Positions 3,894-22,109 of a stretch of 23,772 bases of DNA are shown here, piece by piece. How positions within the stretch are numbered: position 1 is the first letter of the stretch; each line of letters opens with the position of its first letter. The notes beneath the pieces are model-generated. The model saw only the letters and a list, made by a program, of their open reading frames with translations. It made no database searches and was not told where the DNA came from. The translations under genes were made by a program, and so were the position numbers. This DNA comes from a virus (Duplodnaviria > Heunggongvirae > Uroviricota > Caudoviricetes): positions 1 to 23,772 of the IMG/VR virus record IMGVR_UViG_3300016484_000447; one strand, written 5' to 3'.

Positions 3894-4099
3894 CCTCCAC
3901 GGACTCCCATGATCTTCAGAACCATGTCCTCGGCATCTCCGAGGGCAACACGGGCTCTGAAAACGTCTGATGCAGCCTTCATTGCCCTGTTCCCGTTGAC
4001 AGTCTCCTGCGTGAGACGCCTTCCGTCCTCTTCGAGTTCCTGTTGCAACGCGAACAGGGCGCCATTCAGCAACTGAATGCCGTTCAGCCGCTCCTTCAT
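3890..4099 (-). CDS. Hypothetical helical protein (69 aa)
   Basis: Coupled to rtcB stop and to the DUF4031 start. Confidence 0.65.
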   Translation of the reverse strand: MKERLNGIQLLNGALFALQQELEEDGRRLTQETVNGNRAMKAASDVFRARVALGDAEDMVLKIMGVRGG

Positions 4100-5373
4100 C
4101 AGTTTCCCTTCACGCAGAGGACAGCCTTCAGGACGTGAACGACTTCCACCAAGTCCTTCTGAAGCTCCATGACGACATCCAGACGCTTGTAGGCGCCGGG
4201 GATTTCATCCAGCACTGCGGAGTCCTTCCGGCACTCCACGCCATCCGTCTGCTCGATCAGGTCTTGCAGGGAGAACCGGCGCTTCGCTTCAGCCCGGGAC
4301 ATCGCCCGCCCCGCACCGTGCGAACACGAACAGTAGCTGTCGGCGTTGCCCTTGCCACGGACGATGTAGGACTGCTGACCCATCGAGCCAGGGATGATGC
4401 CCATGTCGCCCTCGCGTGCGCGGATTGCGCCCTTGCGCGTCACCCACAGGTTCTGCCCGAAGTGGTTCTCACGGGAGATGTAGTTGTGGTGGCAGTTGAT
4501 GGCTTCACTGGTCACGGTGAACTCCACCGGGACGTGCCGACGCAGAGCCGCCAGGACGACAGTCATCATCTCCTTGCGGTTCTCCAGGGCGTAGTCCTGC
4601 GCCCACTGCACCGCGTCCGTGTACGCCTTGAAGTCGTCGTCGGCTTCCGGGATGAAGGCGAGGTCGCCATCGGGCAGGGTGATGTAGAACATCTCCATCT
4701 TGCGCTTGGCCTTCTCGATGTAGTAGCTGCCGATCATGTTGCCGACGCCACGGGAGCCCGAGTGCAGCATGACCCACACGTCGTCGTTCTCGTCGGTGCA
4801 GAGTTCGATGAAGTGGTTGCCGCTGCCCAGCGTGCCAACTTGGCTGACGCTCTTCTTCAGGAAGGCTTCCTCGTCCTTGAACGGCACCTTGGCGGATTCC
4901 GGGGCGCTCTTGAACAGGTCGCTCCGCGCCGCGATCCAGATGCTTCGCTCCAGGCCATCGACGTTGTGGCTTCCACCAGTGCCCATCGGGATGTCACGCT
5001 CGATTTGCGAGCGGATGGCCTTCAGGTTGTCGGGCAGTTGGTGCGCCTTCAGCGACAGGCGGACGGCGTTCATGCCGCAGCCCAGGTCAACGCCAACGGC
5101 AGAGGGGATGATCGCGTTCGTGGTCGGAACCACGGAACCCACGGTCGCACCCTTGCCCAGATGGGCGTCGGGCATCAGGGCCACGCCCTGCGGAGCGATG
5201 AACGGCAGACGTGCGATGTTCTTGGTCTGTTGCAGCGCCGCGTCTTCCACGTCGATGACCGTCACCTTGTCGTAGTGGTTGACCCCGAACTCGTCTTCGC
5301 GTCGAACTTTGGACTCCTTCGTGCCCAGCCATGCCTTGATGGGCTTTGCGCCCTCTTCGCGGGTGACGATCAT
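4099..5373 (-). CDS. rtcB: RtcB RNA ligase (3'-phosphate/2',3'-cyclic phosphate to 5'-OH, GTP/Mn dependent)
   Basis: MPDAHLGKG, VGVDLGCG, GTLGSGNHF, LHSGSRG, HHNY, IPGSMG, SHGAGR motifs; AAGGAG SD before ATG 5373. Confidence 0.95.
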   Translation of the reverse strand: MIVTREEGAKPIKAWLGTKESKVRREDEFGVNHYDKVTVIDVEDAALQQTKNIARLPFIAPQGVALMPDAHLGKGATVGSVVPTTNAIIPSAVGVDLGCGMNAVRLSLKAHQLPDNLKAIRSQIERDIPMGTGGSHNVDGLERSIWIAARSDLFKSAPESAKVPFKDEEAFLKKSVSQVGTLGSGNHFIELCTDENDDVWVMLHSGSRGVGNMIGSYYIEKAKRKMEMFYITLPDGDLAFIPEADDDFKAYTDAVQWAQDYALENRKEMMTVVLAALRRHVPVEFTVTSEAINCHHNYISRENHFGQNLWVTRKGAIRAREGDMGIIPGSMGQQSYIVRGKGNADSYCSCSHGAGRAMSRAEAKRRFSLQDLIEQTDGVECRKDSAVLDEIPGAYKRLDVVMELQKDLVEVVHVLKAVLCVKGN

Positions 5374-5386
5374 CTTTCTCTCCTTC

Positions 5387-5527
5387 TCAGCGTCTTGAAA
5401 ATCGAACAGCCCACAGTATACCGTAGGCGAGAGCCACGTACATCGCAAGTGGCGCCAAAGCCACACACAGGATGATGACGGCTGGGGCGGGAAGAGCCCG
5501 CCCGCTTCGGCTGAATCTACGGCTCAT
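5387..5527 (-). CDS. Small single-pass membrane protein (46 aa)
   Basis: Hydrophobic core VIILCVALAPLAMYVALAYGILWAV flanked by Arg-rich ends; fills the gap between genes. Confidence 0.5.
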   Translation of the reverse strand: MSRRFSRSGRALPAPAVIILCVALAPLAMYVALAYGILWAVRFSRR

Positions 5528-5959: not shown

Positions 5960-7219
5960 TCAGCCCTTCTTCAGCAGGTAGCTGTTCGAGATGGCCTTGA
6001 AGCTGAAGTCCCGCTTGTTCGACTTGAACACCACACCCTCGCGCTTCACGCCCTTGTTCATGCCAGGGCCTTCGGCGTAGGCCAGGATGCTCTCGACCAT
6101 CGCACGGGCTGACTCTTGCGGAGTCAGGCTGGCATCAGCCTCGTGCCGGAACTCCTTCAGCGACATGCGACGTTCCAGAACTGGCACGTAACTCAGGCAG
6201 GCGAACTCAGTCGCAAGACGTGCAGCAACCGGGCGCAGGTAGGTGCCCTCGGTGATGTTGAACACGTCGAAGACGTGCCACCCGTAGCCGCTGACTTGCT
6301 CGTGGTTCTGCTGGATCGACGGCGCGATCAGTTCCCCTTGGAAGGCGACCGCTTCATCCGGTTGCGCACCCAGGGCGATCTTCTCGATGATGCGGTGTTC
6401 GCGCACGAACTGGCTGAAGTGGTTGTCACCGTCGATGTCCAGTTCGATGTTGCGACTGCACACGCCCGACAGGTACTCAGGCTTCGGTGCAGGCCAGAAC
6501 CGCGACTTGATGGAGTCGATCACCCGACCGAACAGGCCCATCTTCGCACGACGCTTCTCGTCACGCTCCTTCAGGATTTCGGCGTACAGCGGGTTCTCCT
6601 TGCCGATCACGTAGACCGTCATGGAAGAGCCGTCCAGCTTGATCGTGGCCTCGAAGGTTTCTTCGTCATCGACTGTCGGGATCAGGTGGATGTAGTTCTG
6701 CACCCGCTCTTGGTCGGTCTTGCGCAGGAACCACGGGAAGGCACGAGTCTTGCTTGCCTGCGACGGCCCGCCCTTCTCGGACTGTTGCACCTCCAAGGGC
6801 TCCCACTTCTCGACCTTGAGAATGTCGGTCACGTCGTCGCCCTCGTTGTAGAACAGGCCGGGGCCGACAGACGCCTTGAACGGGCTCGTGCTGACTTCCA
6901 CAGTCGTCCCCATCAGTTCGGGGAACTGGCTCGTGGACAGTATCAGGCCCTGCGACAGTTGCTTGCGCAGCTTGATCGTCTTCAGGCGCATCCCGCGCTT
7001 CGTGCCCCAGTTGGTGAAGCGTTCCTCGAAGGAAGCGTACACCGGGTTGCTGGCGTCCAGCCACGAGTCCACCTCGAAGTAGACCACGAGGTCGCCCACG
7101 GCGAATTCGCCCTTCTTGACGACGACAGACCAGCCCAGGACATCGGCGACTTCGATCAGGTCGGCGCCGGGGATCGGGCGCAGGCCCGTGACTCGTTGAA
7201 TGCTTGCGAGTTTACGCAT
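5960..7219 (-). CDS. ATP-dependent RNA ligase, DRB0094/Rnl2-like family with N-terminal OB-type domain
   Basis: MRKLASIQ N-terminus, motif I KLDGSS, FQGEL, FDV, REGVVFK, FKAISNSYLLK. Confidence 0.9.
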   Translation of the reverse strand: MRKLASIQRVTGLRPIPGADLIEVADVLGWSVVVKKGEFAVGDLVVYFEVDSWLDASNPVYASFEERFTNWGTKRGMRLKTIKLRKQLSQGLILSTSQFPELMGTTVEVSTSPFKASVGPGLFYNEGDDVTDILKVEKWEPLEVQQSEKGGPSQASKTRAFPWFLRKTDQERVQNYIHLIPTVDDEETFEATIKLDGSSMTVYVIGKENPLYAEILKERDEKRRAKMGLFGRVIDSIKSRFWPAPKPEYLSGVCSRNIELDIDGDNHFSQFVREHRIIEKIALGAQPDEAVAFQGELIAPSIQQNHEQVSGYGWHVFDVFNITEGTYLRPVAARLATEFACLSYVPVLERRMSLKEFRHEADASLTPQESARAMVESILAYAEGPGMNKGVKREGVVFKSNKRDFSFKAISNSYLLKKG

Positions 7220-7554: not shown

Positions 7555-7902
7555 TCAGACCGGGCTGCGCCCGGCTCGTTCATTTCTTGTGTTACGTGAC
7601 CCTATCCAGCGTCTGTACGCCTCCATTTCCCATGTGTTCCCAGACTCATCCACGACTTGAAACACAGGGGACACGAACACGTACTCTCTTCCGTACAGGT
7701 TTCCATCTAGCAGGCTTACGGGGCTAGTGCTTGAAACCAACCCTTCCGGGAATCCGTCTTCACCCTCTTCCCAAGACTCTGACACATGCCAAGCTATGAT
7801 TGGGTTGTCAGTGTCTATGTAGACTTTCCCATCACAATCTGAAACCATGAAGTACCCCGGCACTGCCGTGATCATGTTTCGTGCGTGCCGCCTCGTCTTC
7901 AC
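7555..7902 (-). CDS. Hypothetical protein with lower GC and atypical codon usage (start may be 7875, MITAVPG)
   Basis: ORF overlaps vWA stop; A/T-ending codons frequent. Confidence 0.55.
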   Translation of the reverse strand: MKTRRHARNMITAVPGYFMVSDCDGKVYIDTDNPIIAWHVSESWEEGEDGFPEGLVSSTSPVSLLDGNLYGREYVFVSPVFQVVDESGNTWEMEAYRRWIGSRNTRNERAGRSPV

Positions 7903-9194
7903 TTGTAGGTGTACCAGCCGAAGATGGTGTTGCCGACGACGACGCTGCCGCGCTGCGGAGTGCCGGTCTTGCTGTCGCGGGCCTCTTGGCGCGTGCTGAA
8001 CACGTTCACAGGGCGACCGTTGACGGTCGGGAAGAGGCTCTTGGGCGCCTGGGCCTTCGGAATCGGGCTTGCAGTCGGACGGGTGTTGCCGACGACGGCT
8101 GGCAGAACCGGGACTGCGGGTGCCGCAGGGGCCTTCGGCGCGAACTTGTCGATGTCCTCCTGGGTGAACGGCACACCTTGCTTCTCCCAGTAGATCACGC
8201 CCACGTTGTCGGGCAGCAGCCTGTTCAGCGACTCGCTCTGGATGAAGATGTCGTAGTTGCCGTGGTCGCCAGGGTGGACGCGAGCGTTGCTCGTCGGGTC
8301 GGTCGGCATCCCGATCATCTGGCGGGCTTCCTTGCCAGCGAAGATGCGGTGCGGTGCCTGACGCTCACGAATCAGCACGATCTTCTTCGGGCCGATCTTG
8401 GGCTCGGTCTTCACCAGTTGCACGAACGCGGCGCCCTTGAGGAACTTGCTGCGCTTGCTCAGGATGAAGTCGTCGATGCGCAGGCGTGCGGTGCCGTTCG
8501 AGTTGGGCACTTGGTACAGGCTCACTTCCGAGGTGATGTCGGTCAGCTTCGACACGTCCACCGCTGCGGCGTTGGTGTAGAACGACGACGAAGACCGGGC
8601 ACCAGCCGAACGGGCGGCGTAGTACGCAGTGGTCGCGGCCTGGGTCGCCACGGTGGCCTTTGCCATGCCTTCGCGGGTCGTCTCCCACTCCAGCACGTTG
8701 CCATCGGGGATGCCGATGGCCGTCGCGTGATGTGCTGCACCGCGAGGCATACGGGCGACGAAAGTCCAGCGACCAGTGGCCTGAAGCTCTTCGATCTTTC
8801 GGCAGAGGTTGGTGGCGCTTCTGCGCTTCGAGTGGCTCTCGCGCCCGTCTGTCGTGATGAAGATCAGGAACGACACGTCCGGGTTGGAGTAGTCGGGGAG
8901 CTTCTCGTGCAGTTCGATGGCATCCCAGATGCCGTCGTACAGCGGGGTGCCGCCCGGCGTCGGCCAGGAAGTCTCTTCGCGCATGACGTTCGGGTTCGAG
9001 ATGACGTACTTCCGCACGACGCCCGAGTCTCCGTCGAGGCCGACACCGAAGGCCGAGACGATGGTGTCCAGACGCTCCTTGGTAGCGGCATTGGCGATGG
9101 ACATGCGGTTGGCGTTCGAGTCGGCCAGGGCCATCTTTGCGATGCCGTGCATCGAGCCGCTGTGGTCGTCCACGAATGCGATGTAGTTCTTCAC
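7899..9194 (-). CDS. von Willebrand factor A (vWA) domain protein with uncharacterised C-terminal half (431 aa, GTG start)
   Basis: MIDAS elements DHSGS, GGTPLYD, ITTDG; AAGGAG SD. Confidence 0.85.
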   Translation of the reverse strand: MKNYIAFVDDHSGSMHGIAKMALADSNANRMSIANAATKERLDTIVSAFGVGLDGDSGVVRKYVISNPNVMREETSWPTPGGTPLYDGIWDAIELHEKLPDYSNPDVSFLIFITTDGRESHSKRRSATNLCRKIEELQATGRWTFVARMPRGAAHHATAIGIPDGNVLEWETTREGMAKATVATQAATTAYYAARSAGARSSSSFYTNAAAVDVSKLTDITSEVSLYQVPNSNGTARLRIDDFILSKRSKFLKGAAFVQLVKTEPKIGPKKIVLIRERQAPHRIFAGKEARQMIGMPTDPTSNARVHPGDHGNYDIFIQSESLNRLLPDNVGVIYWEKQGVPFTQEDIDKFAPKAPAAPAVPVLPAVVGNTRPTASPIPKAQAPKSLFPTVNGRPVNVFSTRQEARDSKTGTPQRGSVVVGNTIFGWYTYK

Positions 9195-9208
9195 GTTGTT
9201 CTTCTCCT

Positions 9209-9355
9209 TCAGTTGTTCGCTGCAACCACACCGAACACAACGTCTGCGTGGGGGATGAAAATGAACGGCTCGCCTGTTTGCAGCAGGAATGGCAGACCGA
9301 TCTGGGCCAGTGCCGAAGCGACTGGGATGAACTTGGGGCCTTCAGGCGTCTTCAC
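9209..9355 (-). CDS. Small hypothetical protein (48 aa, GTG start), possibly the C-terminal part of the upstream gene
   Basis: Hand translation VKTPEGPKFIPVASALAQIGLPF...; GTGA overlap, weak SD. Confidence 0.45.
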   Translation of the reverse strand: MKTPEGPKFIPVASALAQIGLPFLLQTGEPFIFIPHADVVFGVVAANN

Positions 9356-9567
9356 GATTCACGCACCACGTCGAAGACATCAGGGAGCATCCGTGCTTGA
9401 CTCGGACGCTGGCCGCGAAGGAAGCCGTAGAAACTGCCTTTGACACGGACGCGGCGACCACTTGCAGTGTCTTCCACGAAGTCGTGGTCGGAAATCTTCT
9501 CATCGTTGAGAAGCGGACGGAAGCGCATCTCGACGGTCTTCGGTTTGCTTGACTTGGTGAGGTACAT
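9352..9567 (-). CDS. Hypothetical protein (71 aa, MYLTKSSKPK...)
   Basis: AAGGAG SD before ATG 9567. Confidence 0.65.
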   Translation of the reverse strand: MYLTKSSKPKTVEMRFRPLLNDEKISDHDFVEDTASGRRVRVKGSFYGFLRGQRPSQARMLPDVFDVVRES

Positions 9568-10759: not shown

Positions 10760-10795
10760 GTGTGTCCTTGATGTTGAAAGCCGCGATTCTACATG

Positions 10796-10827
10796 AAAAA
10801 AGCCGCCGCACCAGTAGGTGTGGCGGC
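10796..10827 (-). terminator. Rho-independent terminator after the ClpP-like gene
   Basis: GCCGCCACACC-TACT-GGTGCGGCGGC hairpin plus TTTTTT on minus strand. Confidence 0.8.
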
Positions 10828-10837
10828 GATACAACAC

Positions 10838-11419
10838 TTAGTCGCGTTGCTTGATTCGTTCTTTCAGGCGCTCCCTGAACTCGTCGGCGTTGAACCAGAA
10901 GTCCTTGCCTTCGATCATGCGCTCGATTTCGTCCTTCGTCAAGAAGCCCTTGTAGGTCTTGCGGAAGAGGTCGCACATGAACGCCCGGCTGTGATCGGAT
11001 GCTGCGGCGTACTCGTTGAACTTCCCGCCATGACCGACGCTTCCGTTGTGGACGAGAGCATTGAAGCCTTCAGACAGGATCACCTCGTCGGCGTGCATCA
11101 GGATCAGCGTACCGGCAGAGTGGACACCGCCGCTTGCGATGAACACGATCCTTGCACGGCACATCTTCAACGCCAGCAGGAAGGTGTCAGTCGCATCGAC
11201 GCTCCCACCAGGGGTGGACAGATGCACCATCACGAGGTCATCTTCTTTGGCGATCTGGAGTGCCTCGATTGCAGGGATGAACTGCTCCGCGCTCTCGATG
11301 CCGTCGAAGATGAAGATGTTGAAGATTTGCGGCCCCTCTTCCGACTCCACGACGGAGACGTGGAAGGCTTCGTTGTAGATCGGCTCGTCGCCGTCCTCAG
11401 ATTGCTTGCGTTTTCCCAT
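10838..11419 (-). CDS. ClpP-like (S14) serine protease
   Basis: HLSTPGGSV, HSAG (Ser), LVHN (His), KDFWF (Asp) align with the ClpP catalytic triad. Confidence 0.85.
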   Translation of the reverse strand: MGKRKQSEDGDEPIYNEAFHVSVVESEEGPQIFNIFIFDGIESAEQFIPAIEALQIAKEDDLVMVHLSTPGGSVDATDTFLLALKMCRARIVFIASGGVHSAGTLILMHADEVILSEGFNALVHNGSVGHGGKFNEYAAASDHSRAFMCDLFRKTYKGFLTKDEIERMIEGKDFWFNADEFRERLKERIKQRD

Positions 11420-11428
11420 GACGCTCCT

Positions 11429-12226
11429 TCAGGTGTTGTGGTAGTACATCTTGACGAACGCACGAGTCAGGCCGCTACGGACGACATCCTCGGGCATGAA
11501 CCTGACGACTCCGATGCTCTCGTCAAGAGCGTCGATGTCGGACGAGTCCATGTACTCGGGGTGCGTCTGAAGCATCCGTTCGATCAGCGCCACAGCCGTC
11601 TTCAGGCCGCTCTCCGTCTTCAGGTCGTTCTGCTTCGTGTCACCAGTGAACACCATCTGGGTGTTCTCGCCAAGGCGAGTCAGAACCATCTCCATGTCTT
11701 CGTGGTCGAAGTTCTGTGCCTCTTCCACCAGCACGAAGCAGTCCTCGAAGCTCATCCCTCGAAGGTACTCAGTCGGCACCATCTCTATGATCTTCTTCTC
11801 CAAGCAGTAGGTCGTGAAGCCCTTGCCAAGCATCCGCTCGAAGTGAGCCAGTGTCTGCTTGAAGTACGGTGCCAGCTTCTCTTCGACCTCTCCGGGAAGC
11901 AGGCCGATGCTCTTCCCGGTCACGACTGCCGGGCGTGCGAGGTACACCTTGTCGATCTGCTTCGACTTGAGCAACACGGCTGCTCGATGCACAGCGAGAA
12001 GCGACTTGCCCGTACCGGCACTGCCAGTCAGGAACAGAACCGGGACGCCTTCCGCAAGGAACTTCATCGCCCTGCGTTGGTTCTGGTTTTTCGCTTCGAG
12101 TTGCGGAATCGCTGCGGGCTTCTGCACCACGTCTTCGGGGGTGCTGGCCTGCCGTGCTGCAATCCGCTCTTGCAGCAGCTTCTCGCGCCGGGTCAGGCGC
12201 GGGGTGCGTTGTGTTTTGCGTCCCAT
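11429..12226 (-). CDS. phoH: PhoH-family ATPase
   Basis: Walker A GSAGTGKS, RGMSF, VEEAQN, TGD..Q motifs. Confidence 0.9.
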   Translation of the reverse strand: MGRKTQRTPRLTRREKLLQERIAARQASTPEDVVQKPAAIPQLEAKNQNQRRAMKFLAEGVPVLFLTGSAGTGKSLLAVHRAAVLLKSKQIDKVYLARPAVVTGKSIGLLPGEVEEKLAPYFKQTLAHFERMLGKGFTTYCLEKKIIEMVPTEYLRGMSFEDCFVLVEEAQNFDHEDMEMVLTRLGENTQMVFTGDTKQNDLKTESGLKTAVALIERMLQTHPEYMDSSDIDALDESIGVVRFMPEDVVRSGLTRAFVKMYYHNT

Positions 12227-12239
12227 CGTTTCTCCTGGG

Positions 12240-12446
12240 TCAGCCGTCCACGCCTCTCAGGAGGGCGGGTGTGGCTTGTTGTTCTTCGAGCCGTTTCCGG
12301 CCCCAGCGTGCGAAGATGAAGTGTTGCAGAGACGCACCAGTCCGGGGCGGGCGACCCTCCCTGAAGGCTTCCACGAGGCTTGCGAGGTAGTCACGCTCTG
12401 CTGTGACTTGTACAAGCCGCTCCTTCAGCTTCACGACGCCGTTCAT
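12240..12446 (-). CDS. Hypothetical protein (68 aa)
   Basis: ATGA overlap with upstream gene. Confidence 0.55.
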   Translation of the reverse strand: MNGVVKLKERLVQVTAERDYLASLVEAFREGRPPRTGASLQHFIFARWGRKRLEEQQATPALLRGVDG

Positions 12447-13828: not shown

Positions 13829-14017
13829 ATGTTCGGTCTTCTCGAAGACATCGCAAAGGCGGCTGTGGCAGTCGTGACCACGCCGGTTGCAGTGGTGGTC
13901 GATACCGCAGAACTGGTCGGCATCAAGCAAGACAGTGGTCGCTGCCACACAGCCGACACCCTCGGTGCGGTGGTCAAGAACCTCGAAAACGCTGCGAACC
14001 CCACGTCCAGGGGTTGA
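13829..14017 (+). CDS. Small Val/Ala-rich protein (62 aa)
   Basis: AAGGAG SD; stop overlaps next -35. Confidence 0.7.
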   Translation: MFGLLEDIAKAAVAVVTTPVAVVVDTAELVGIKQDSGRCHTADTLGAVVKNLENAANPTSRG

Positions 14018-14043
14018 CAGGACAAGGAAGTGTGTGATACACT
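14014..14043 (+). promoter_or_regulatory. Promoter of the tRNA/ncRNA operon
   Basis: TTGACA-N18-TACACT with TGTGA; first tRNA starts 11 nt downstream. Confidence 0.8.
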
Positions 14044-14053
14044 TCCAACACTC

Positions 14054-14129
14054 GCCCTTTTAGCTCAGTTGGTAGAGCAACTGCCTTGTAAGCAGTAGGT
14101 CGTCCGTTCGAGTCGGACAGGGGGCACCA
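14054..14129 (+). tRNA. tRNA-Thr(TGT)
   Basis: Canonical cloverleaf, encoded CCA. Confidence 0.95.
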
Positions 14130-14133
14130 GTCC

Positions 14134-14325
14134 TCATTCGCGTGGGCTTGTAGGTGATAGTGACGAAAGGTGCTTGACTGGTACATCTTGCACTGAGCCA
14201 CCCGTTCGAGTCGGGGAAGAGGCCACTGGCAAGTAGTCACAACGTTCACCGTGACGCACTCAGACGTATTCTGAGCAACGGTAGGTCGTATGTAAGCGTA
14301 GCCTACTACGAGCCCACACGAATGA
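14134..14325 (+). ncRNA. Candidate structured RNA A (192 nt)
   Basis: ~20-bp closing stem 14134-14153/14306-14325; internal T-loop-like hairpin and three further hairpins. Confidence 0.7.
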
Positions 14326-14330
14326 AGATT

Positions 14331-14407
14331 GCCCGGGTGGCGAAATTGGCAGACGCGGACGGTTGAGGGCCGTCTTCTTGCAGGTTCGAGTCCTGCCCTG
14401 GGCACCA
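14331..14407 (+). tRNA. tRNA-Leu(GAG) with short variable loop
   Basis: Cloverleaf, anticodon GAG, 5-nt variable region, CCA. Confidence 0.9.
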
Positions 14408-14652
14408 TGTTCTTTGATAGTCGCTTCGGAATACCGAAAGAGAAACACCGCGAGAGGGGCAGGGGCTAGCACACCTCCCCGAAAGGTGAAAAGTCGGAAT
14501 TCAAAGCAACGGGGACGTTGCTGGCGAAACAGGATCGGAGTTGGCGGAAGGCACCGGGCTGAGTAACCCGGAGAAGCCACCCTTGAACTCTACGACTGAC
14601 GCATTCGCCCGAAGGCAAACGGTAATCCGACCGGAGCGACTTTCAAAGAGCA
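14408..14652 (+). ncRNA. Candidate structured RNA B (245 nt)
   Basis: ~21-bp closing stem 14408-14429/14631-14652; nested helices, GNRA-type loops. Confidence 0.7.
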
Positions 14653-14655
14653 TTT

Positions 14656-14727
14656 GCGGGTTGTCAATGGAGTACGTTTGGCCTTCCAAGCCGAAAGAGG
14701 CAGGTTCGACCCCTGTAGCCCGCTCCA
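14656..14727 (+). tRNA. tRNA-Gly(TCC) with degenerate D-arm
   Basis: GCGGGTT/AGCCCGC acceptor, U73-CCA, TCC anticodon; 72 nt, D-stem barely pairs. Confidence 0.8.
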
Positions 14728-14734
14728 AAGAATT

Positions 14735-15060
14735 TTCGATGTAGCACGGAAGACGCCTGCTAAGGTTGCGGGTAGTCACGGAAGATGCGAAGCACTGCTA
14801 CGGTGCTAGCCCGAAACTACTGAGGATTTGCGGCCCTACTGCACACAGGCCATAAGGTAGAAAAACGAAGTGCCCGCAACGTTATCGAAGGAATACGGAC
14901 GAAAGTGGCCTGAAAAGAACACTAGACGGACTAGCTTCGACATAAAGCGGTAGAGATGCCCGAGCGGTGACAGCGTAAGCTGATAGCGTCGGATCGACAG
15001 GGACAATAACCCGGCAAATCCTGTTCATCTCAGCCAATGACTGTAGGCTATAAAACAGTC
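14735..15060 (+). ncRNA. Candidate structured RNA C (~330 nt) with kissing loop, pseudoknot and repeated ANGGA motifs
   Basis: Helices 14735-40/14884-89, 14765-72/14873-80, 14953-58/15026-31; loop-loop CAGGCCA/TGGCCTG; 3' H-type pseudoknot. Confidence 0.6.
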
Positions 15061-15063
15061 GAT

Positions 15064-15140
15064 GGGTGCGGTAGCTCAACTGGCAGAGCAACGGATTCCA
15101 AATCCGTAGGTTGTAGGTTCGACTCCTACCCCATTCGCCA
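15064..15140 (+). tRNA. tRNA-Trp(CCA) with weak acceptor stem
   Basis: Canonical D, anticodon and T arms; acceptor has 2 G-U pairs, a C-C mismatch and one extra connector base. Confidence 0.8.
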
Positions 15141-15144
15141 GTTC

Positions 15145-15235
15145 TGTCCTGCACGCAGCGCATGTCTCCAAACTAGAGGTTGCCCCGCCTTGAGTGGCCG
15201 GGCAATAGTACAGGCAATGCACGCTGCGGCAGGCA
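15145..15235 (+). ncRNA. Candidate branched hairpin RNA D (~90 nt)
   Basis: CCTGC-ACGCAGCG-CAT pairs with ATG-CA-CGCTGCG-GCAGG; internal TTGCCC/GGGCAA hairpin. Confidence 0.45.
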
Positions 15236-15241
15236 TTTTTT

Positions 15242-15355
15242 AAGCGGTGGCGCAATCTCGTGCCGCTTGCAACTTGCGCCCTAACAGCGGTGCCGTGTAT
15301 CGCGGCCTTGCTAGCTGCGTTGCGGATCAAACGAGATGCGGGAGTGCGGTTGCAC
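15242..15355 (+). ncRNA. Candidate multiply pseudoknotted RNA E (~115 nt)
   Basis: Crossing helices GGCGCAA/TTGCGCC, TCTCGT/ACGAGA, AAGCGGT/GCCGCTT. Confidence 0.5.
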
Positions 15356-15361
15356 CAATGT

Positions 15362-15437
15362 TGGCCGGTAGCTCAGTTGGTAGAGCACAGGGCTTTGATC
15401 CCTGGTGTCCTTGGTTCGAGTCCAAGTCGGTCTGCCA
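15362..15437 (+). tRNA. tRNA-Gln(TTG)
   Basis: Cloverleaf, U1-U72 mismatch, G73, CCA. Confidence 0.9.
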
Positions 15438-15439
15438 GT

Positions 15440-15515
15440 TGCGGGGTAGCTCAGTCGGTAGAGCGCCGGGCTCATAACCCGGATGTCGTCGGTTCGATCC
15501 CGGCCCCCGCAACCA
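15440..15515 (+). tRNA. tRNA-Met(CAT), initiator-like
   Basis: CAT anticodon, three consecutive G-C pairs at the base of the anticodon stem, U1-A72. Confidence 0.9.
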
Positions 15516-15516
15516 C

Positions 15517-15545
15517 TTGACAAGTAGCGCGTATTGTGCTACAAT
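15517..15545 (+). promoter_or_regulatory. Internal promoter of the tRNA operon
   Basis: TTGACA-N17-TACAAT with TGTGC. Confidence 0.85.
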
Positions 15546-15563
15546 TCTCATACGTAAGAAATT

Positions 15564-15640
15564 GCCCTGCTAGCTCAGTTGGTTAGAGCGGATGATTGTC
15601 GATCATCAGGCCAGCGGTTCGAGTCCGCTGCGGGGCGCCA
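15564..15640 (+). tRNA. tRNA-Asp(GTC)
   Basis: Cloverleaf, G73, CCA. Confidence 0.95.
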
Positions 15641-15641
15641 T

Positions 15642-15717
15642 TGCCGGATAACTCAGTTGGTAGAGTAACCGCCCGATAAGCGGTAAGTCCTTGGTTCGAG
15701 TCCGAGTCTGGCAACCA
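15642..15717 (+). tRNA. tRNA-Ile(GAT) with C33
   Basis: Cloverleaf; anticodon loop CC-GAT-AA. Confidence 0.9.
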
Positions 15718-15723
15718 AACAAC

Positions 15724-15799
15724 GTCCTCATAGTTTAATCGGTTAGAACGCTGGACTTTCAATCCGGTAATTCGGGTTCGATCCCCGATGAGGGCTCCA
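15724..15799 (+). tRNA. tRNA-Glu(TTC)
   Basis: Cloverleaf, CT-TTC-AA loop, U discriminator, CCA. Confidence 0.9.
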
Positions 15800-15805
15800 T
15801 TCAGT

Positions 15806-15881
15806 AGTCTTGTAGCTCAGTTGGTAGAGCGGCGCACTGTTAATGCGTTGGTCGCGGGTTCGATCCCTGCCTTGACTGCCA
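15806..15881 (+). tRNA. tRNA-Asn(GTT)
   Basis: Cloverleaf, two U-U mismatches in acceptor stem, CCA. Confidence 0.9.
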
Positions 15882-15890
15882 GAACATATC

Positions 15891-15961
15891 GGGCTGTTAT
15901 CTGGGGAGACTCTAGGCTTTGCAAGCCCGGGGGAAGGGTTCGATTCCCTTACGGTCCACCA
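15891..15961 (+). tRNA. tRNA-Ala(TGC) with miniature D-arm (71 nt)
   Basis: G3-U70 alanine identity pair, A73-CCA, TT-TGC-AA loop, D-arm reduced to TCT-GGGG-AGA. Confidence 0.8.
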
Positions 15962-15963
15962 TT

Positions 15964-16041
15964 CAGTGTGTATTGTCAATCTGGTAGACGGCCGGGCCAG
16001 GAACCCGGAGGTTGTAGGTTCGATTCCTGCCGCACTGACCA
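15964..16041 (+). tRNA. tRNA-Pro(AGG) with A34 and C33
   Basis: C1-G72, A73 proline identity; loop CC-AGG-AA; CCA. Confidence 0.85.
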
Positions 16042-16050
16042 AACACAACG

Positions 16051-16115
16051 CCAACTACAGCCAGCGCCTACGCTGTTTCTCTTTCTCCTTGGGCAAGGGT
16101 GCTGGCTATAGTTGG
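16051..16115 (+). other. Long hairpin with pyrimidine-rich (anti-SD-like) loop in the tRNA operon trailer
   Basis: CCAACTA-C-AGCCAGCGCC / GGTGCTGGCT-A-TAGTTGG stem, loop contains GTTTCTCTTTCTCCTT. Confidence 0.6.
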
Positions 16116-16123
16116 TGACACGG

Positions 16124-16157
16124 CCCCTGTCGTCCGTTGGACGCTCAGGGGTTTTTT
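16124..16157 (+). terminator. Rho-independent terminator ending the tRNA operon, directly before the terL RBS
   Basis: CCCCTG-TCGTCC-GTT-GGACG-CT-CAGGGG plus TTTTTT. Confidence 0.8.
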
Positions 16158-16170
16158 CATTGGAGGTCGC

Positions 16171-17661
16171 ATGAAGGTGAAGCCGAAAGCCGCTCCCAAA
16201 GAGCGCATGGTCTTCGCTCCTTGCAGCCGCAAGCAACAGTTGATCCTGTTGGATGACTCGACAGACATTCTACTCTGCGGCGGCGGTGCTGGGGGCGGGA
16301 AGTCGCATACGTGTCTGACAAAGGCACTCAAGTACATCAATGACCCCGCAGCGCGGGTTCTGATCGTCCGTCGAACCTACCCGATGTTGAAGATTTCGGG
16401 CGGTCTGTGGGACGAGTCGAAGAAAATCTACCGTCACTTCGGCGGCGTGCCGAAGATTCAGAAGCTGACCTGGGAGTTCCCAAACGGGGCAACGATCCAG
16501 TTTGCTGCCATCCCGGATGACCTGTCCGAGTGGCAAGGTCTTCAGGCCACGAACATCCTCGTGGACGAGTCAGCAGAGTTCACGCAGGAAGAGATTCTGT
16601 TCCTTGCCTCGCGTCTTCGTGGCGCGGACTACAAGGGGCACCTGAACGTCACGATGACGTGCAACCCTTCTCGGGACTCCTTCCTGTACGAGTGGGTGAA
16701 ATACTCGCTGGATGAAACCACAGGCGTCCCGAACGAGGGCACCGAGGACATCGTGCGGTACTTCATCAACGTCGGCGGCAAGATTTACTGGTCGTCGGTG
16801 TCGAAGGATGACCTCTGGGAGCGTTACGGTGAGCCTATGGGCCTCATCCGCTACCACGAGGACGAGAAGAAGATCAACTTCCTGCCGATGTCGTTCCGGT
16901 TCATCCCGCTGACGATCTACGACAACCCGATCCTGCTGAAGAACAACCCGCAGTATCTGGCGAACCTGCTTTCGCAGCCTCGCGTCAACCAGTTGCGTTA
17001 CCTGCACGGGTCGTGGACTGCGCGAGCGGAAGGCTCTGGATTCTTCCGGCGAGAGTGGGTGGAGGTCGTTGACCACGCACCGGCAGACTTCACGTACAAC
17101 CGTGTCCGTTCTTGGGACTTTGCGGCGTCGATTCCATCGGAGTCGAACCCGAACCCCGACTGGACGGCTGGCGTCAAGATGTCCCGAGACAAGTTCGGGT
17201 ACTACTACGTCGAGGACGTGAACCGCTTCCGAAAACTGTCAGATGGCGTCATCAAGGAAGTCATCAAGACAGCCGAGAGCGACGGGCTAGACCAGACGGT
17301 CACGATCCCGAAAGACCCTGGTGCTGGCGGAAAGACGGCGAACGCCTTCCAACTGCGCACACTAGCGGAGCATGGTATCACAGCCAAGTCTGTTGTGGTC
17401 AGCGGTCACAGCGGGAAGATTGCCCGCTTCACACCGTTCTGCACGCTGGCAGAAGCTGGGTTTGTCCGCGTCGTGCGTGGAGACTGGAACGAGGCTTGGT
17501 TCACCGAGCTTGAACTGTTCGAGGGTCTTCGGACGCAGAAGGATGACCAAGTTGACGCGACAGCGGACGCCTTCAACACGCTGTCCAAGTCGGTCGTGCT
17601 TCCGACCATCGCAGTACCAAAACTTGAACAAAGTAGCCCGATTCCCACCGTAGGTACTTGA
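16171..17661 (+). CDS. terL: Terminase large subunit (496 aa)
   Basis: Walker A GGAGGGKS, Walker B ILVDES, MTCNP coupling motif, RSWDFA and DDQVDA nuclease motifs; GGAGG SD before ATG 16171. Confidence 0.95.
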   Translation: MKVKPKAAPKERMVFAPCSRKQQLILLDDSTDILLCGGGAGGGKSHTCLTKALKYINDPAARVLIVRRTYPMLKISGGLWDESKKIYRHFGGVPKIQKLTWEFPNGATIQFAAIPDDLSEWQGLQATNILVDESAEFTQEEILFLASRLRGADYKGHLNVTMTCNPSRDSFLYEWVKYSLDETTGVPNEGTEDIVRYFINVGGKIYWSSVSKDDLWERYGEPMGLIRYHEDEKKINFLPMSFRFIPLTIYDNPILLKNNPQYLANLLSQPRVNQLRYLHGSWTARAEGSGFFRREWVEVVDHAPADFTYNRVRSWDFAASIPSESNPNPDWTAGVKMSRDKFGYYYVEDVNRFRKLSDGVIKEVIKTAESDGLDQTVTIPKDPGAGGKTANAFQLRTLAEHGITAKSVVVSGHSGKIARFTPFCTLAEAGFVRVVRGDWNEAWFTELELFEGLRTQKDDQVDATADAFNTLSKSVVLPTIAVPKLEQSSPIPTVGT

Positions 17662-17710: not shown

Positions 17711-19225
17711 ATGCCTGACAACAAAGCGTCGGATGACGCTATCAGCGCAGCAGCCCTTCAGCCTGATCCCGGAATGGTGATCCCCCGTATCCAACTGGGG
17801 GAGCAAGGCGTTCTCGGCCTGAAGGTGACTCACAAGCGGATCATGGAAGAGGCTCAAGCCGCCTTCCGCTACCCCGCCTTCATCGGAACTGTCAACGAGA
17901 TGCGCAACAACCCCACTGTTGGTGCTGCGATGAACGTGTACAGGATGATGATTTCCCGCGTCCAGTGGGATGTCGAGCCCCCGGTCGAAGCGACTGACGT
18001 TGACAAGCAACGTGCAGAAATCATCCGAACGATGATGCACGACATGGAACACTCCTGGGGCGCCTTCGTAGAGAGCGTGATCCCGTACCTTGAGTACGGC
18101 TTCGCCATCAACGAAATCGTCCTACGCCGCCGACTGAAGCGGAACGGTTCCAAGTTCAACGACGGGCTGGTCGGACTGAAGAAGCTTGCGCCGCGAAGCC
18201 AAGACACCATCTGCGGGTGGGTCTTTTCGGACGATGGCGCAGACCTCGTTGCAGTCGAGCAAAGCCTGAAGCACACTACCAACTCCGCCCGGTTCGCAAA
18301 CCGGACGAACGAGAACGGTACACTGACCATCGACAGGGAGAAGTTCCTGCTGTTCAGTGCGAGTGCGACAAAGGGCAACCCCGAGGGGACTTCGCTCTAC
18401 AAGAACATCTACCTTGCATTCAAGCAGATGACTCTGCTGCAAAACCAAGAGCTTCTTGGAATTGCCAAGGACGTGCAAGGCATCCTGAAGATCGCTATTC
18501 CGCCTCGATACCTTGATCCGAACGCTTCGCCGGAAGATCAAGCTGTCGTGTCGGCCTTCCAGACGATCATCGACAACTACAACGCTGGGACGCAGCGGGG
18601 CCTTCTGGTTCCGAACATGATCGACCCGGAATCGAAGCTGCCGCTTTTCACCTATGACCTCATGGAGTCGAAGGGTGGGGCGAAGTACGATACCGAAGCA
18701 GTCATCAAGCGTCTTCAAGGGGACATCCTCTCTGCGTTGAGTGTTGACATTCTGAAGCTTGGCTCTGAAGGGTCTGGCTCGTTCTCCCTGGCTGAGAGCA
18801 AGAGTTCGGTGCTGGCACTTGCCATCGACTACCGGCTCAAGGAAATCGCCGAGGTGCTGAACAGCCATCTCATGCGTACATTGTACGAGATGAATGGCTG
18901 GGACACAACCAACATGGCGCGTTTCAGCTACAAGGACGTTGAGGAAGTCAGTCTGGAAGAGTTCAGCAAGGCGATCCAACGCATCTTCTCGACAAGCGCA
19001 ATCGAAGTTGACCGCGAGGTTCTCAACCGTGTGCGTACAGTCTTGGGCATCGACCCTCGACCCGATGACGAAGAAGTGGACAAAGACAACCTGCCCGCCA
19101 ACCTGACTGGCAACAAGTCAGCGGCGGGGGCTGGAATGGAAGTTGGCACCACCGGAAACGGGACTGCCAAGAACCCGAACGGTCAGCAAGATTCGTCCGC
19201 GAACAACGCTGACAACACTGACTAG
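17711..19225 (+). CDS. Portal protein (504 aa)
   Basis: Size and position between terL and protease; GS.SLA motif typical of DUF935-type portals. Confidence 0.85.
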   Translation: MPDNKASDDAISAAALQPDPGMVIPRIQLGEQGVLGLKVTHKRIMEEAQAAFRYPAFIGTVNEMRNNPTVGAAMNVYRMMISRVQWDVEPPVEATDVDKQRAEIIRTMMHDMEHSWGAFVESVIPYLEYGFAINEIVLRRRLKRNGSKFNDGLVGLKKLAPRSQDTICGWVFSDDGADLVAVEQSLKHTTNSARFANRTNENGTLTIDREKFLLFSASATKGNPEGTSLYKNIYLAFKQMTLLQNQELLGIAKDVQGILKIAIPPRYLDPNASPEDQAVVSAFQTIIDNYNAGTQRGLLVPNMIDPESKLPLFTYDLMESKGGAKYDTEAVIKRLQGDILSALSVDILKLGSEGSGSFSLAESKSSVLALAIDYRLKEIAEVLNSHLMRTLYEMNGWDTTNMARFSYKDVEEVSLEEFSKAIQRIFSTSAIEVDREVLNRVRTVLGIDPRPDDEEVDKDNLPANLTGNKSAAGAGMEVGTTGNGTAKNPNGQQDSSANNADNTD

Positions 19226-21092: not shown

Positions 21093-22109
21093 ATGATCGT
21101 TCGTTCGTTCAACAGCGGCTTTGAAGTCCAAGACTGGACCGAAGAAGTCAACGTCATCCCGAACCAGTGGGGCACCATCGGCCAACTGGGCATCTTCCAA
21201 ACGGAAGCCATCGCTGAACACGTCGTTGTGTTCGAGGAAACCATCAAGGATGGCGCCCTGCTGGTGGACCGCGTGCGCGGTGATCGTGGAACGCAAGGCA
21301 AGGACGCCAGCCGCAAGCTGCACACCTTCGCCGTGCCTCACTTCCCGCACGACGACTACATCAGCCCGCAAGACCTGCAAGGCAAGCGTGCCTACGGCTC
21401 GCAAGGCGTCGAAACCCTGGAAGCTGTCCGCGCCCGCAAGCTGGAACGCATCCGCCAGAACCACGCCTGGACCCTGGAGTACGCCCGTGCGCAAGCGATC
21501 ACCGCTGCCACCGTGTACGCTCCGAACGGCACCGTGTCGCAGAACTGGAACACTGAATTCGGCGTGACCCGCCTGTCGGTGGACTTCACGCTGGGCACCT
21601 CGACAACGGAAGTGATCGCCAAGATCGAAGCCGGTCTGGCCCAGATCGCGGACAACGCCTTCGGCGAAACCGTGAGCGGCACCGTCGTCCTGACCTCGCC
21701 GGAATTCTTCGCCAAGCTGATCGCTCACCCCTCGGTGAAGGTCGCCTACCAATACTACCAACAAAGCGGCATGAACCCGCTGCGCGAGCGGCTGGGTGGC
21801 GCGAACGCGCTGCACCGTGAGTTCGAGTTCGGTGGCACCCGCTTCGTGGAAATGCGCGACACCTACGCAGGCAACCGCCTGATCCCGGTGGGCAAGGCGT
21901 ACATGGTTCCGCTGGGCACATCGAACACCTTCAAGACCTACTTCAGCCCCGCCAACCGCTTCGGTCTGGTGAACACCCTGGGCGAACAGGTCTACGTGTT
22001 CGAGAACGCTGACCAGAAGGGCACCAAGATCGAACTCGAAAGCGAGTCGAACTTCGTGAACGCTCTCCTGCGCCCTGCGCTGATCGTGGAATTCACCACA
22101 TCGAACTAA
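21093..22109 (+). CDS. Major capsid protein (lambda gpE-like, 338 aa)
   Basis: Size, position, very strong codon bias, terminator downstream. Confidence 0.9.
   Translation: MIVRSFNSGFEVQDWTEEVNVIPNQWGTIGQLGIFQTEAIAEHVVVFEETIKDGALLVDRVRGDRGTQGKDASRKLHTFAVPHFPHDDYISPQDLQGKRAYGSQGVETLEAVRARKLERIRQNHAWTLEYARAQAITAATVYAPNGTVSQNWNTEFGVTRLSVDFTLGTSTTEVIAKIEAGLAQIADNAFGETVSGTVVLTSPEFFAKLIAHPSVKVAYQYYQQSGMNPLRERLGGANALHREFEFGGTRFVEMRDTYAGNRLIPVGKAYMVPLGTSNTFKTYFSPANRFGLVNTLGEQVYVFENADQKGTKIELESESNFVNALLRPALIVEFTTSN

Follow-up and report, generated by a model that had tools for sequence, protein, structure and literature searches.

The tRNA array of this virus raises a simple question: what is the 192-nt segment that separates tRNA-Thr(UGU) from tRNA-Leu(GAG), and does it represent a functional RNA, a relic of tRNA genes, a processing spacer, or an element acting at the level of DNA? 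The window, i.e., the entire stretch of 23,772 nt analyzed here, is taken from an IMG/VR virus record of 87,772 bases with a completeness rating of 100%, of which it forms the opening 23.8 kb. Its right part codes for the large terminase (16099 to 17661), the portal (17711 to 19225), and the major head protein (21093 to 22109), and an array of 11 tRNAs detected by ARAGORN (14054 to 16041), all on the plus strand, lies directly upstream of the large-terminase gene. The segment in question, hereinafter RNA A (14134 to 14325, plus strand), fills its spacer to within 4 to 5 nt: the 3′ end of tRNA-Thr(UGU) (14054 to 14129, plus strand; CCA encoded; 69.8 bits) lies 4 nt ahead of it, and the 5′ end of tRNA-Leu(GAG) (14331 to 14407, plus strand; 77 nt; 50.5 bits) lies 5 nt past it. 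Upstream of the array, the virus encodes, on the minus strand, an RNA-repair pair comprising RtcB (4099 to 5466; 412 bits) and an RNA ligase with the PHA02142 OB-fold domain (5960 to 7219); the ligase gene is kept in relatives together with the Macro, ClpP, and PhoH genes. The nearest cultured phages are distant, with the best terminase identity being about 41% (Pakpunavirus, Otagovirus, and Felixounavirus-type phages), and there are many uncultured relatives of about 85 to 95 kb.

The array and its surroundings show several further peculiarities. A tRNA-like gene at 14656 to 14724 scores 26.6 bits, under the Rfam threshold, and is not called by ARAGORN; its anticodon loop, CUUCCAA, suggests Gly(UCC). 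The tRNA-Leu(GAG) at 14331 to 14407, like its counterparts at L098:1265-1341 and L002:9-85, has no long variable arm of the kind that bacterial tRNA-Leu species typically possess. Mobile elements have inserted themselves into the terminase genes of relatives: in L106, the terminase ORF as called runs at its end into a group I intron (L106:2649-2877; 67.7 bits in Rfam), and terminases of 799 to 828 aa (proteins P0003 and P0014) carry intein-like LAGLIDADG/Hom_end inserts. In a close relative, a gene for a 471-aa DUF2828/DUF7788 protein is lodged within the tRNA array (L097:2029-3444), and this gene is absent from the window's genome.

An earlier interpretation made from the letters of the DNA alone (the sequence-only reading) took RNA A to be a discrete RNA with paired ends and, further, a mimic of the tRNA elbow in the manner of the bacterial Y RNAs. 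The first part of this interpretation stands, whereas the second fares poorly, as detailed below. The termini do pair, 14134 to 14153 with 14306 to 14325, to form a terminal helix (P1) of 20 positions with 18 Watson-Crick pairs, one G-U pair, and one C.A mismatch. The internal hairpins that had been listed are likewise all present, namely, CCCG-TTCGAGT-CGGG (14201 to 14215), GTCAC/GTGAC, CTCAGA/TCTGAG, and GTAGG/CCTAC, and the observation that acceptor and anticodon arms are missing is supported by the failure of both ARAGORN and the Rfam tRNA models to return a match. The minimum-energy fold of −78.4 kcal/mol (z = −4.67; as good in 0 of 200 shuffles) consists of the terminal helix enclosing five hairpins. 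In the ensemble, pair probabilities are about 0.9 to 1.0 for P1 and P3 to P6, with those of P1 being mostly 0.95 to 1.0 and dropping at both ends. RNA A is a genuine, independently folding structured RNA.

Gapless pairing at 19 of 20 terminal positions, 60 to 400 nt apart, is not uncommon in itself: it is found at three loci in the window (RNA A, RNA B, and 9103 to 9418), as against about 0.9 in shuffled windows. The last of these, an inverted repeat bounding a 316-nt stretch with 19 to 20 of 20 positions paired, is a chance occurrence with a fold z of +0.5 and provides a useful control against which the stem of RNA A can be judged. Hence, what lifts RNA A above chance is not its terminal pairing alone but its flush fit between two tRNAs together with the covariation seen in its homolog.

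This homolog, the only one, lies at L031:706-891 (186 nt; 64% identity), on a viral contig of 15.9 kb that encodes part of a terminase (87% identity), and occupies the same slot between tRNA-Thr(UGU) and tRNA-Leu(GAG), with the spacer again filled to the base. A match to L031:714-870 was obtained with nhmmer, and a covariance model made from the window sequence alone with a hand-drawn structure recovered L031:706-891 at 64 bits (E = 2e-17); the fold of this copy has a z of −2.94. In the alignment of the two copies (A4), which is model-guided and fitted to the structure and hence favors it, 96.6% of the cells are paired and 14 pairs are changed on both sides (seven in P1, two in P2, three in P5, and two in P6). 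This covariation is matched in 0 of 500 shuffles, and sliding the 3′ partners by 1 to 3 columns lowers the pairing to 30 to 40%. A separate MAFFT/RNAalifold run on the window and L031 copies yielded seven compensatory pairs.

Traversing RNA A from its 5′ end, with all parts on the plus strand, the 5′ strand of P1 (14134 to 14153; 7 of 19 pairs changed on both sides in L031) is followed by an invariant junction block, GACGAAAGGTG (14162 to 14172), which is identical in the L031 copy and unique in the 87.8-kb genome. The P2 hairpin (14170 to 14193) is the least certain helix: its loop reads GUACA in both copies, and it is predicted in L031 (probability, 0.67) and absent from the window RNA's own ensemble. 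A further invariant block, ACTGAGCC (14192 to 14199), precedes P3 (14201 to 14215; probability, 0.87), the T-arm-like hairpin CCCG-UUCGAGU-CGGG, whose CCG/CGG stem is invariant. The block GGCAAGTAGTCA (14228 to 14239), again the same in L031 and unique in the genome, supplies with its 3′ part the 5′ strand of P4 (14233 to 14257), a GUCAC/GUGAC hairpin with an invariant stem and a variable loop. P5 (14259 to 14275; CUCAGA/UCUGAG) bears the conserved loop CGUAU, and P6 (14281 to 14306; GUAGG/CCUAC; probability, 0.96 to 0.99) bears the conserved loop AUGU.AAGCGUA and leads into the 3′ strand of P1 (14306 to 14325). In this family of two members, P3 and P4 are supported by conservation and energy only, their stems being unvaried, and P2 is ambiguous.

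At an overall identity of 64%, the five invariant blocks GACGAAAGGTG, ACTGAGCC, GGCAAGTAGTCA, TGACGCA, and AAGCGTA extend over 7 to 12 nt each, and the P5 loop CGTAT and AACG are also the same in the window and L031. Given these blocks and the 14 compensatory changes, the structure of RNA A is under selection, and RNA A is not a tRNA in decay. The window copy is overlapped by an antisense ORF of 144 codons that has no counterpart in L031, and RNA A is therefore taken to be non-coding. The invariant junction strands along with the unchanged P3 and P4 stems are likely to constitute its functional surface. In both copies, the loops of P5 (CGUAU) and P6 (its conserved AUGU) have the capacity to pair, a putative loop-loop contact, and the conserved GUAC of the P2 loop is self-complementary, which would allow putative RNA A dimers.

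The hairpin P3 is what had suggested an elbow mimic, in which the T-loop would dock on a D-loop-like GG so as to bind RNase P, Ro60/Rsr, or defense nucleases. As had been pointed out, the TTCGAGT loop is the same as the T-loops of the flanking tRNA-Thr and tRNA-Leu. The present analysis adds that the 13-mer CCGTTCGAGTCGG is common to RNA A and the T-arm of tRNA-Thr. The window copy indeed displays two GG strings and a T-loop that is perfect for a tRNA and closed by a G-C pair, and the phage carries both RtcB and the RNA ligase; moreover, isolated T-arm hairpins recur in T4 rnaC and in closed inter-tRNA RNAs of related phages, there with an invariant GTTCGATTC loop. In the tRNA elbow, U55 and C56 are the two bases that contact the D-loop, and the first and fifth bases of the loop, U1 and A5, form the minimal T-loop pair. 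In L031, the sole homolog, the loop UUCGAGU is replaced by UGAGAGU: U54 and A58, i.e., U1 and A5 of the loop, are retained, but U55 is changed to G and C56 to A. The preferred L031 hairpin is also register-shifted (CCGAC-CGUGAGA-GUCGG), with the 3-bp version of the window type having a pair probability of about 0. Of the two D-loop-like GG strings of the window copy, the first, CUGGUACA, is AAAGUACAC in L031, with GG changed to AG and GUACA retained; no change compensating for the T-loop or the GG-to-AG substitutions was found in L031.

The Y-RNA reading is not supported either. The YrlA model (RF02553) gives no match inside 14134 to 14325, even at an E value of ≤10, and its matches in the window, at 18 to 20 bits against a gathering score of 69, all fall on true tRNAs at 15406 to 15830; the tRNA model is likewise without a match in RNA A. 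No TROVE/Ro60 gene was found in the complete 87.8-kb record with a search that did match control genomes, and a search for a hidden Ro60-like protein in the genome gave no TROVE or DUF2828 match. (The long plus-strand ORFs at 7881 to 9443 and 10793 to 12319 belong to no family, have low recognition scores, and may not be real genes.) The supposed link to RtcB holds to the extent that the phage encodes this protein, but its gene is located 9 kb upstream, in the reverse orientation, and is not an operon partner. The size of RNA A also falls outside the Y-RNA range (PMC4201824). The sequence-only reading had itself named a T-loop that varies among homologs as an outcome that would contradict it, and in L031 the T-loop is indeed not kept. 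The mimic idea is thereby strongly weakened, with the comparison involving one homolog only; we consider it improbable and conclude that RNA A is probably not a tRNA-elbow or Y-RNA mimic. The T-arm of the L031 tRNA-Thr is another one (GACTG-TTCGATT-CAGTC), so that the identity over 13 nt seen in the window does not look like a trait of the family but like the product of shared ancestry with, or homogenization against, the neighboring tRNA-Thr. P3 is best read as a tRNA-derived relic or a homogenized copy and not as a conserved elbow mimic.

Stray T-arms and closed structures are not restricted to this locus. Among 154 distinct inter-tRNA gaps of 90 to 450 nt in the fetched loci, 24% show at least 8 end-to-end pairs compared to 12% of shuffles. 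Several of the gaps with the longest stems are closed RNAs with isolated T-arm-like hairpins and no Rfam match, namely, those at L003:2310-2453, L032:1349-1486 (homolog, L045:3145-3290), L106:939-1073, and L043:2282-2409 (homolog, L042:2104-2239). Those of L003, L032, L106, and L043 are 128 to 144 nt long and resemble RNA A in having a long terminal helix (13 to 18 bp) flush with the flanking tRNAs; neither nhmmer nor the covariance model detects homology between them and RNA A. In both families with a homolog (L032/L045 and L043/L042), the GTTCGATTC loop is invariant amid variable surroundings, a constancy that the RNA A family does not share. T-arm-like hairpins, for which we required a TTCRANN loop, a closing G-C pair, and a stem of 4 bp or more, number 60 in 104 kb of array gaps, 34 in 551 kb of the plus strand outside arrays, and 0 in 720 kb of the opposite strand of the same loci; the 60 must include some tRNAs overlooked by ARAGORN. 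This enrichment points to many unrecognized or tRNA-derived RNAs in these arrays, and structured RNAs with a stray T-arm represent a recurring theme of phage tRNA arrays, one that probably stems from descent from tRNA genes.

The same enrichment, along with the 13-nt T-arm identity with the neighboring tRNA-Thr, is what one might cite in favor of RNA A being what is left of one or two tRNA genes in decay, with a structure that is not selected. The sequence-only reading had itself mentioned this as a way in which its proposal might fail. Opposing it are the absence of any residual tRNA model signal and, at an identity of 64%, the persistence of invariant blocks that are not of tRNA type together with 14 compensatory pairs. 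The covariation largely rules out such a remnant; we regard it as very unlikely. A tRNA-derived origin of P3 is possible, with RNA A as a whole being under selection.

How constant a component of the array is RNA A? It is absent from relatives at 82 to 86% terminase identity, in which the gap between tRNA-Thr(UGU) and tRNA-Leu is 1 nt (L098), 6 nt (L097), or 15 nt (L101). The flanking tRNA alleles of the two carriers are themselves divergent (Thr, 66% identical; Leu, 69% identical). The tRNA-Leu of the window has the short arm (77 nt) and that of L031 the long arm (86 nt); at this array position, L031 and L101 alike hold long-arm versions of 86 to 87 nt. In L098, which is without RNA A, an L031-type tRNA-Thr (91%) and a window-type tRNA-Leu (92%) lie 1 nt apart. 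RNA A is thus kept in two tRNA backgrounds and missing from a third, and it behaves as an optional, self-contained accessory module that recombination has moved about in the array. It is also dispensable, since close relatives do without it.

Such precise presence or absence between the same two tRNAs, together with the terminal inverted repeats, could also be explained by an element acting at the DNA level, in which the 20-bp repeats would either bound a miniature mobile element or form a cruciform at which recombination takes place. However, RNA A is present in a single copy in the genome, and no target-site duplication is seen at its borders. Further, the arm sequences are wholly different between the carriers yet complementary, and they make use of G-U pairs, which fits selection at the level of RNA rather than at that of a transposase. 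We therefore hold a DNA-level element to be highly improbable.

With regard to expression, a sigma-70-type promoter with an extended TG motif (TTGACA-18-TACACT; 14014 to 14043, plus strand), recognized by its match to the consensus only, precedes tRNA-Thr. Because no plus-strand terminator-like site was found between it and the next promoter at 15517, it should give one shared transcript with tRNA-Thr, RNA A, tRNA-Leu, RNA B, and the following elements. That second promoter, also near-consensus and TG-extended (TTGACA-17-TACAAT; 15517 to 15545), is located in the array between tRNA-Met and tRNA-Asp.

Our favored proposal, which we judge to be fairly probable, is that RNA A is a self-contained non-coding RNA cassette of about 190 nt that is cotranscribed within the tRNA operon, released from it, stable, and active in trans. 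Transcribed with the tRNAs from the promoter at 14014 to 14043, RNA A would acquire its 3′ end through RNase P cleavage at the 5′ end of tRNA-Leu, leaving a 5-nt tail, and its 5′ end would be freed by the endonuclease cut behind the CCA of tRNA-Thr that is needed for the maturation of this tRNA. The terminal helix might then block exonucleases, so that RNA A accumulates as a stable RNA like T4 rnaC and rnaD. It could act in trans via the invariant core GACGAAAGGUG, ACUGAGCC, GGCAAGUAGUCA...UGACGCA, CGUAU, and AAGCGUA; the likeliest role is that of a decoy or platform to which a protein or another RNA binds.

An alternative without any function in trans is that RNA A is a passive processing spacer, its helix providing a site for RNase III or another endonuclease or insulating the folding of the two tRNAs. 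A helix of 20 positions suffices in length for RNase III, as is the case in the window, and both the placement of RNA A exactly between two tRNAs and the fact that relatives manage without it would accord with such a role. A spacer would, however, have no need for five internal hairpins kept by covariation and for invariant junction blocks, and neighboring tRNAs of these arrays mature with spacers of 1 to 15 nt. Further, the terminal helix of L031 has only 11 contiguous pairs and a short extension, under the usual length for RNase III, and RNase III is therefore unlikely to be a conserved player. On balance, we find a passive spacer unlikely, and we prefer the trans-acting cassette.

A more specific version of the latter is that RNA A is a decoy or scaffold set free from the tRNA precursor, possibly as a homodimer formed via GUAC, whose invariant junction core either binds and neutralizes a host defense factor directed at tRNAs or recruits the RtcB or RNA ligase of the phage; as framed, we see this as a slim prospect. 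A search for an antisense target of RNA A in the phage genome yielded nothing above chance.

The family is rare, with one other phage carrier found. Over 80 terminase-linked viral loci, nhmmer detected L031 only, and covariance models R1 and R2 found nothing beyond it in about 820 kb of related loci and 29 whole related virus records, nor any new copy in 12 further contigs from Logan, ENA, and JGI. Scans for exact blocks, with four patterns applied to viral contigs, one to metagenome contigs, and one to genome contigs, yielded only L031 and chance matches in coding DNA. No match to RNA A was obtained by blastn against cultured phages, and protein-anchored searches using two small upstream genes led to no further RNA A.

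Some candidates were discarded. Matches of 15 to 17 bits to the covariance models in L099 to L101 reflect overlap with tRNA-Asp, and RNA A and RNA B share short resemblances only. An sRNA at L085:5290-5450 and L088:4220-4380 has CACTGA...GGCAAGTAGTCA...GTGACGCAC in common with RNA A, probably by chance, as its fold has a z of −0.19 and it gives no model or Rfam match; the unit is about 115 nt long, has a strong promoter and terminator, and belongs to a viral contig of low GC content.

That phage tRNA clusters contain extra stable RNAs, T4 rnaC and rnaD, has been known for some fifty years, and their roles are still unknown. RNA A offers a new and unrelated example: its secondary structure is clear, its invariant nucleotides make up a small set of targets for mutation, and genomes that naturally carry or lack it permit comparison. 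Together with the many other closed inter-tRNA RNAs of related phages, it suggests that tRNA operons serve as a general platform for the expression and release of accessory phage RNAs. If the decoy or scaffold reading were true, phage tRNA arrays would be delivery cassettes for a large and fast-evolving RNA repertoire. The individual weight of RNA A is modest, as it forms a family of two members.

Comparison with the known families places RNA A outside most of them. None of the 4,227 Rfam models matches inside RNA A, even at an E value of ≤10, and for tRNA (RF00005; at least 29 bits), neither ARAGORN nor Rfam gives a match. The Y RNAs are 80 to 130 nt long and are encoded beside Ro60 (Chen et al. 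2014, PMC4201824). RNA A is akin to YrlA in its paired ends, in the presence of RtcB in the genome, and, in the window copy only, in the T-loop hairpin and GG strings. It differs in its length (192 nt and, in L031, 186 nt) and, as judged from one homolog, in not conserving the tRNA-like domain with a UUCRA T-arm and D-loop GG. A long stem is present, but its sequence is almost wholly different between the two copies, with 7 pairs changed on both sides; the terminal helix covaries freely, and a conserved helix for Ro binding is not apparent from these two copies. GOLLD RNAs frequently occur in prophages and in the vicinity of tRNAs, and ROOL RNAs resemble them in their properties (PMC5737381). 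Both share multijunction folds with RNA A but, at 580 to 800 nt, are three to four times as long; their pseudoknotted architecture is not seen in RNA A, and the window has no Rfam match to either. As Rfam gives no match, TROVE/Ro60 is absent, rtcB is distant, and the size differs, RNA A is not a YrlA, tRNA, GOLLD, or ROOL RNA.

The closest parallel is provided by T4 rnaC (species 1) and rnaD (species 2), which are multihairpin RNAs of 119 to 139 nt with roles that are still unknown (PMC3014915 and PMC9697503). These T4 RNAs are encoded within the tRNA cluster, on the same strand as the tRNAs, and have neither a promoter nor a terminator of their own; RNA A likewise lies in a phage tRNA cluster, on the strand of the tRNAs, and in their predicted transcription unit. 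The T4 rnaC fold has a z of −4.6 and includes a T-arm hairpin, CCGGG-UUCGAAU-CCCGG; this T-arm adjoins the 3′ end, as in a tRNA, whereas that of RNA A is internal, within the closing helix of 20 positions. RNA A is also longer (192 nt) and is known here from its sequence alone, and model R2 with filters off scores ≤1.5 bits on both T4 RNAs, giving no sign of homology. The stable RNAs of tRNA clusters typified by T4 rnaC and rnaD are the closest known system, to which RNA A is analogous and not homologous.
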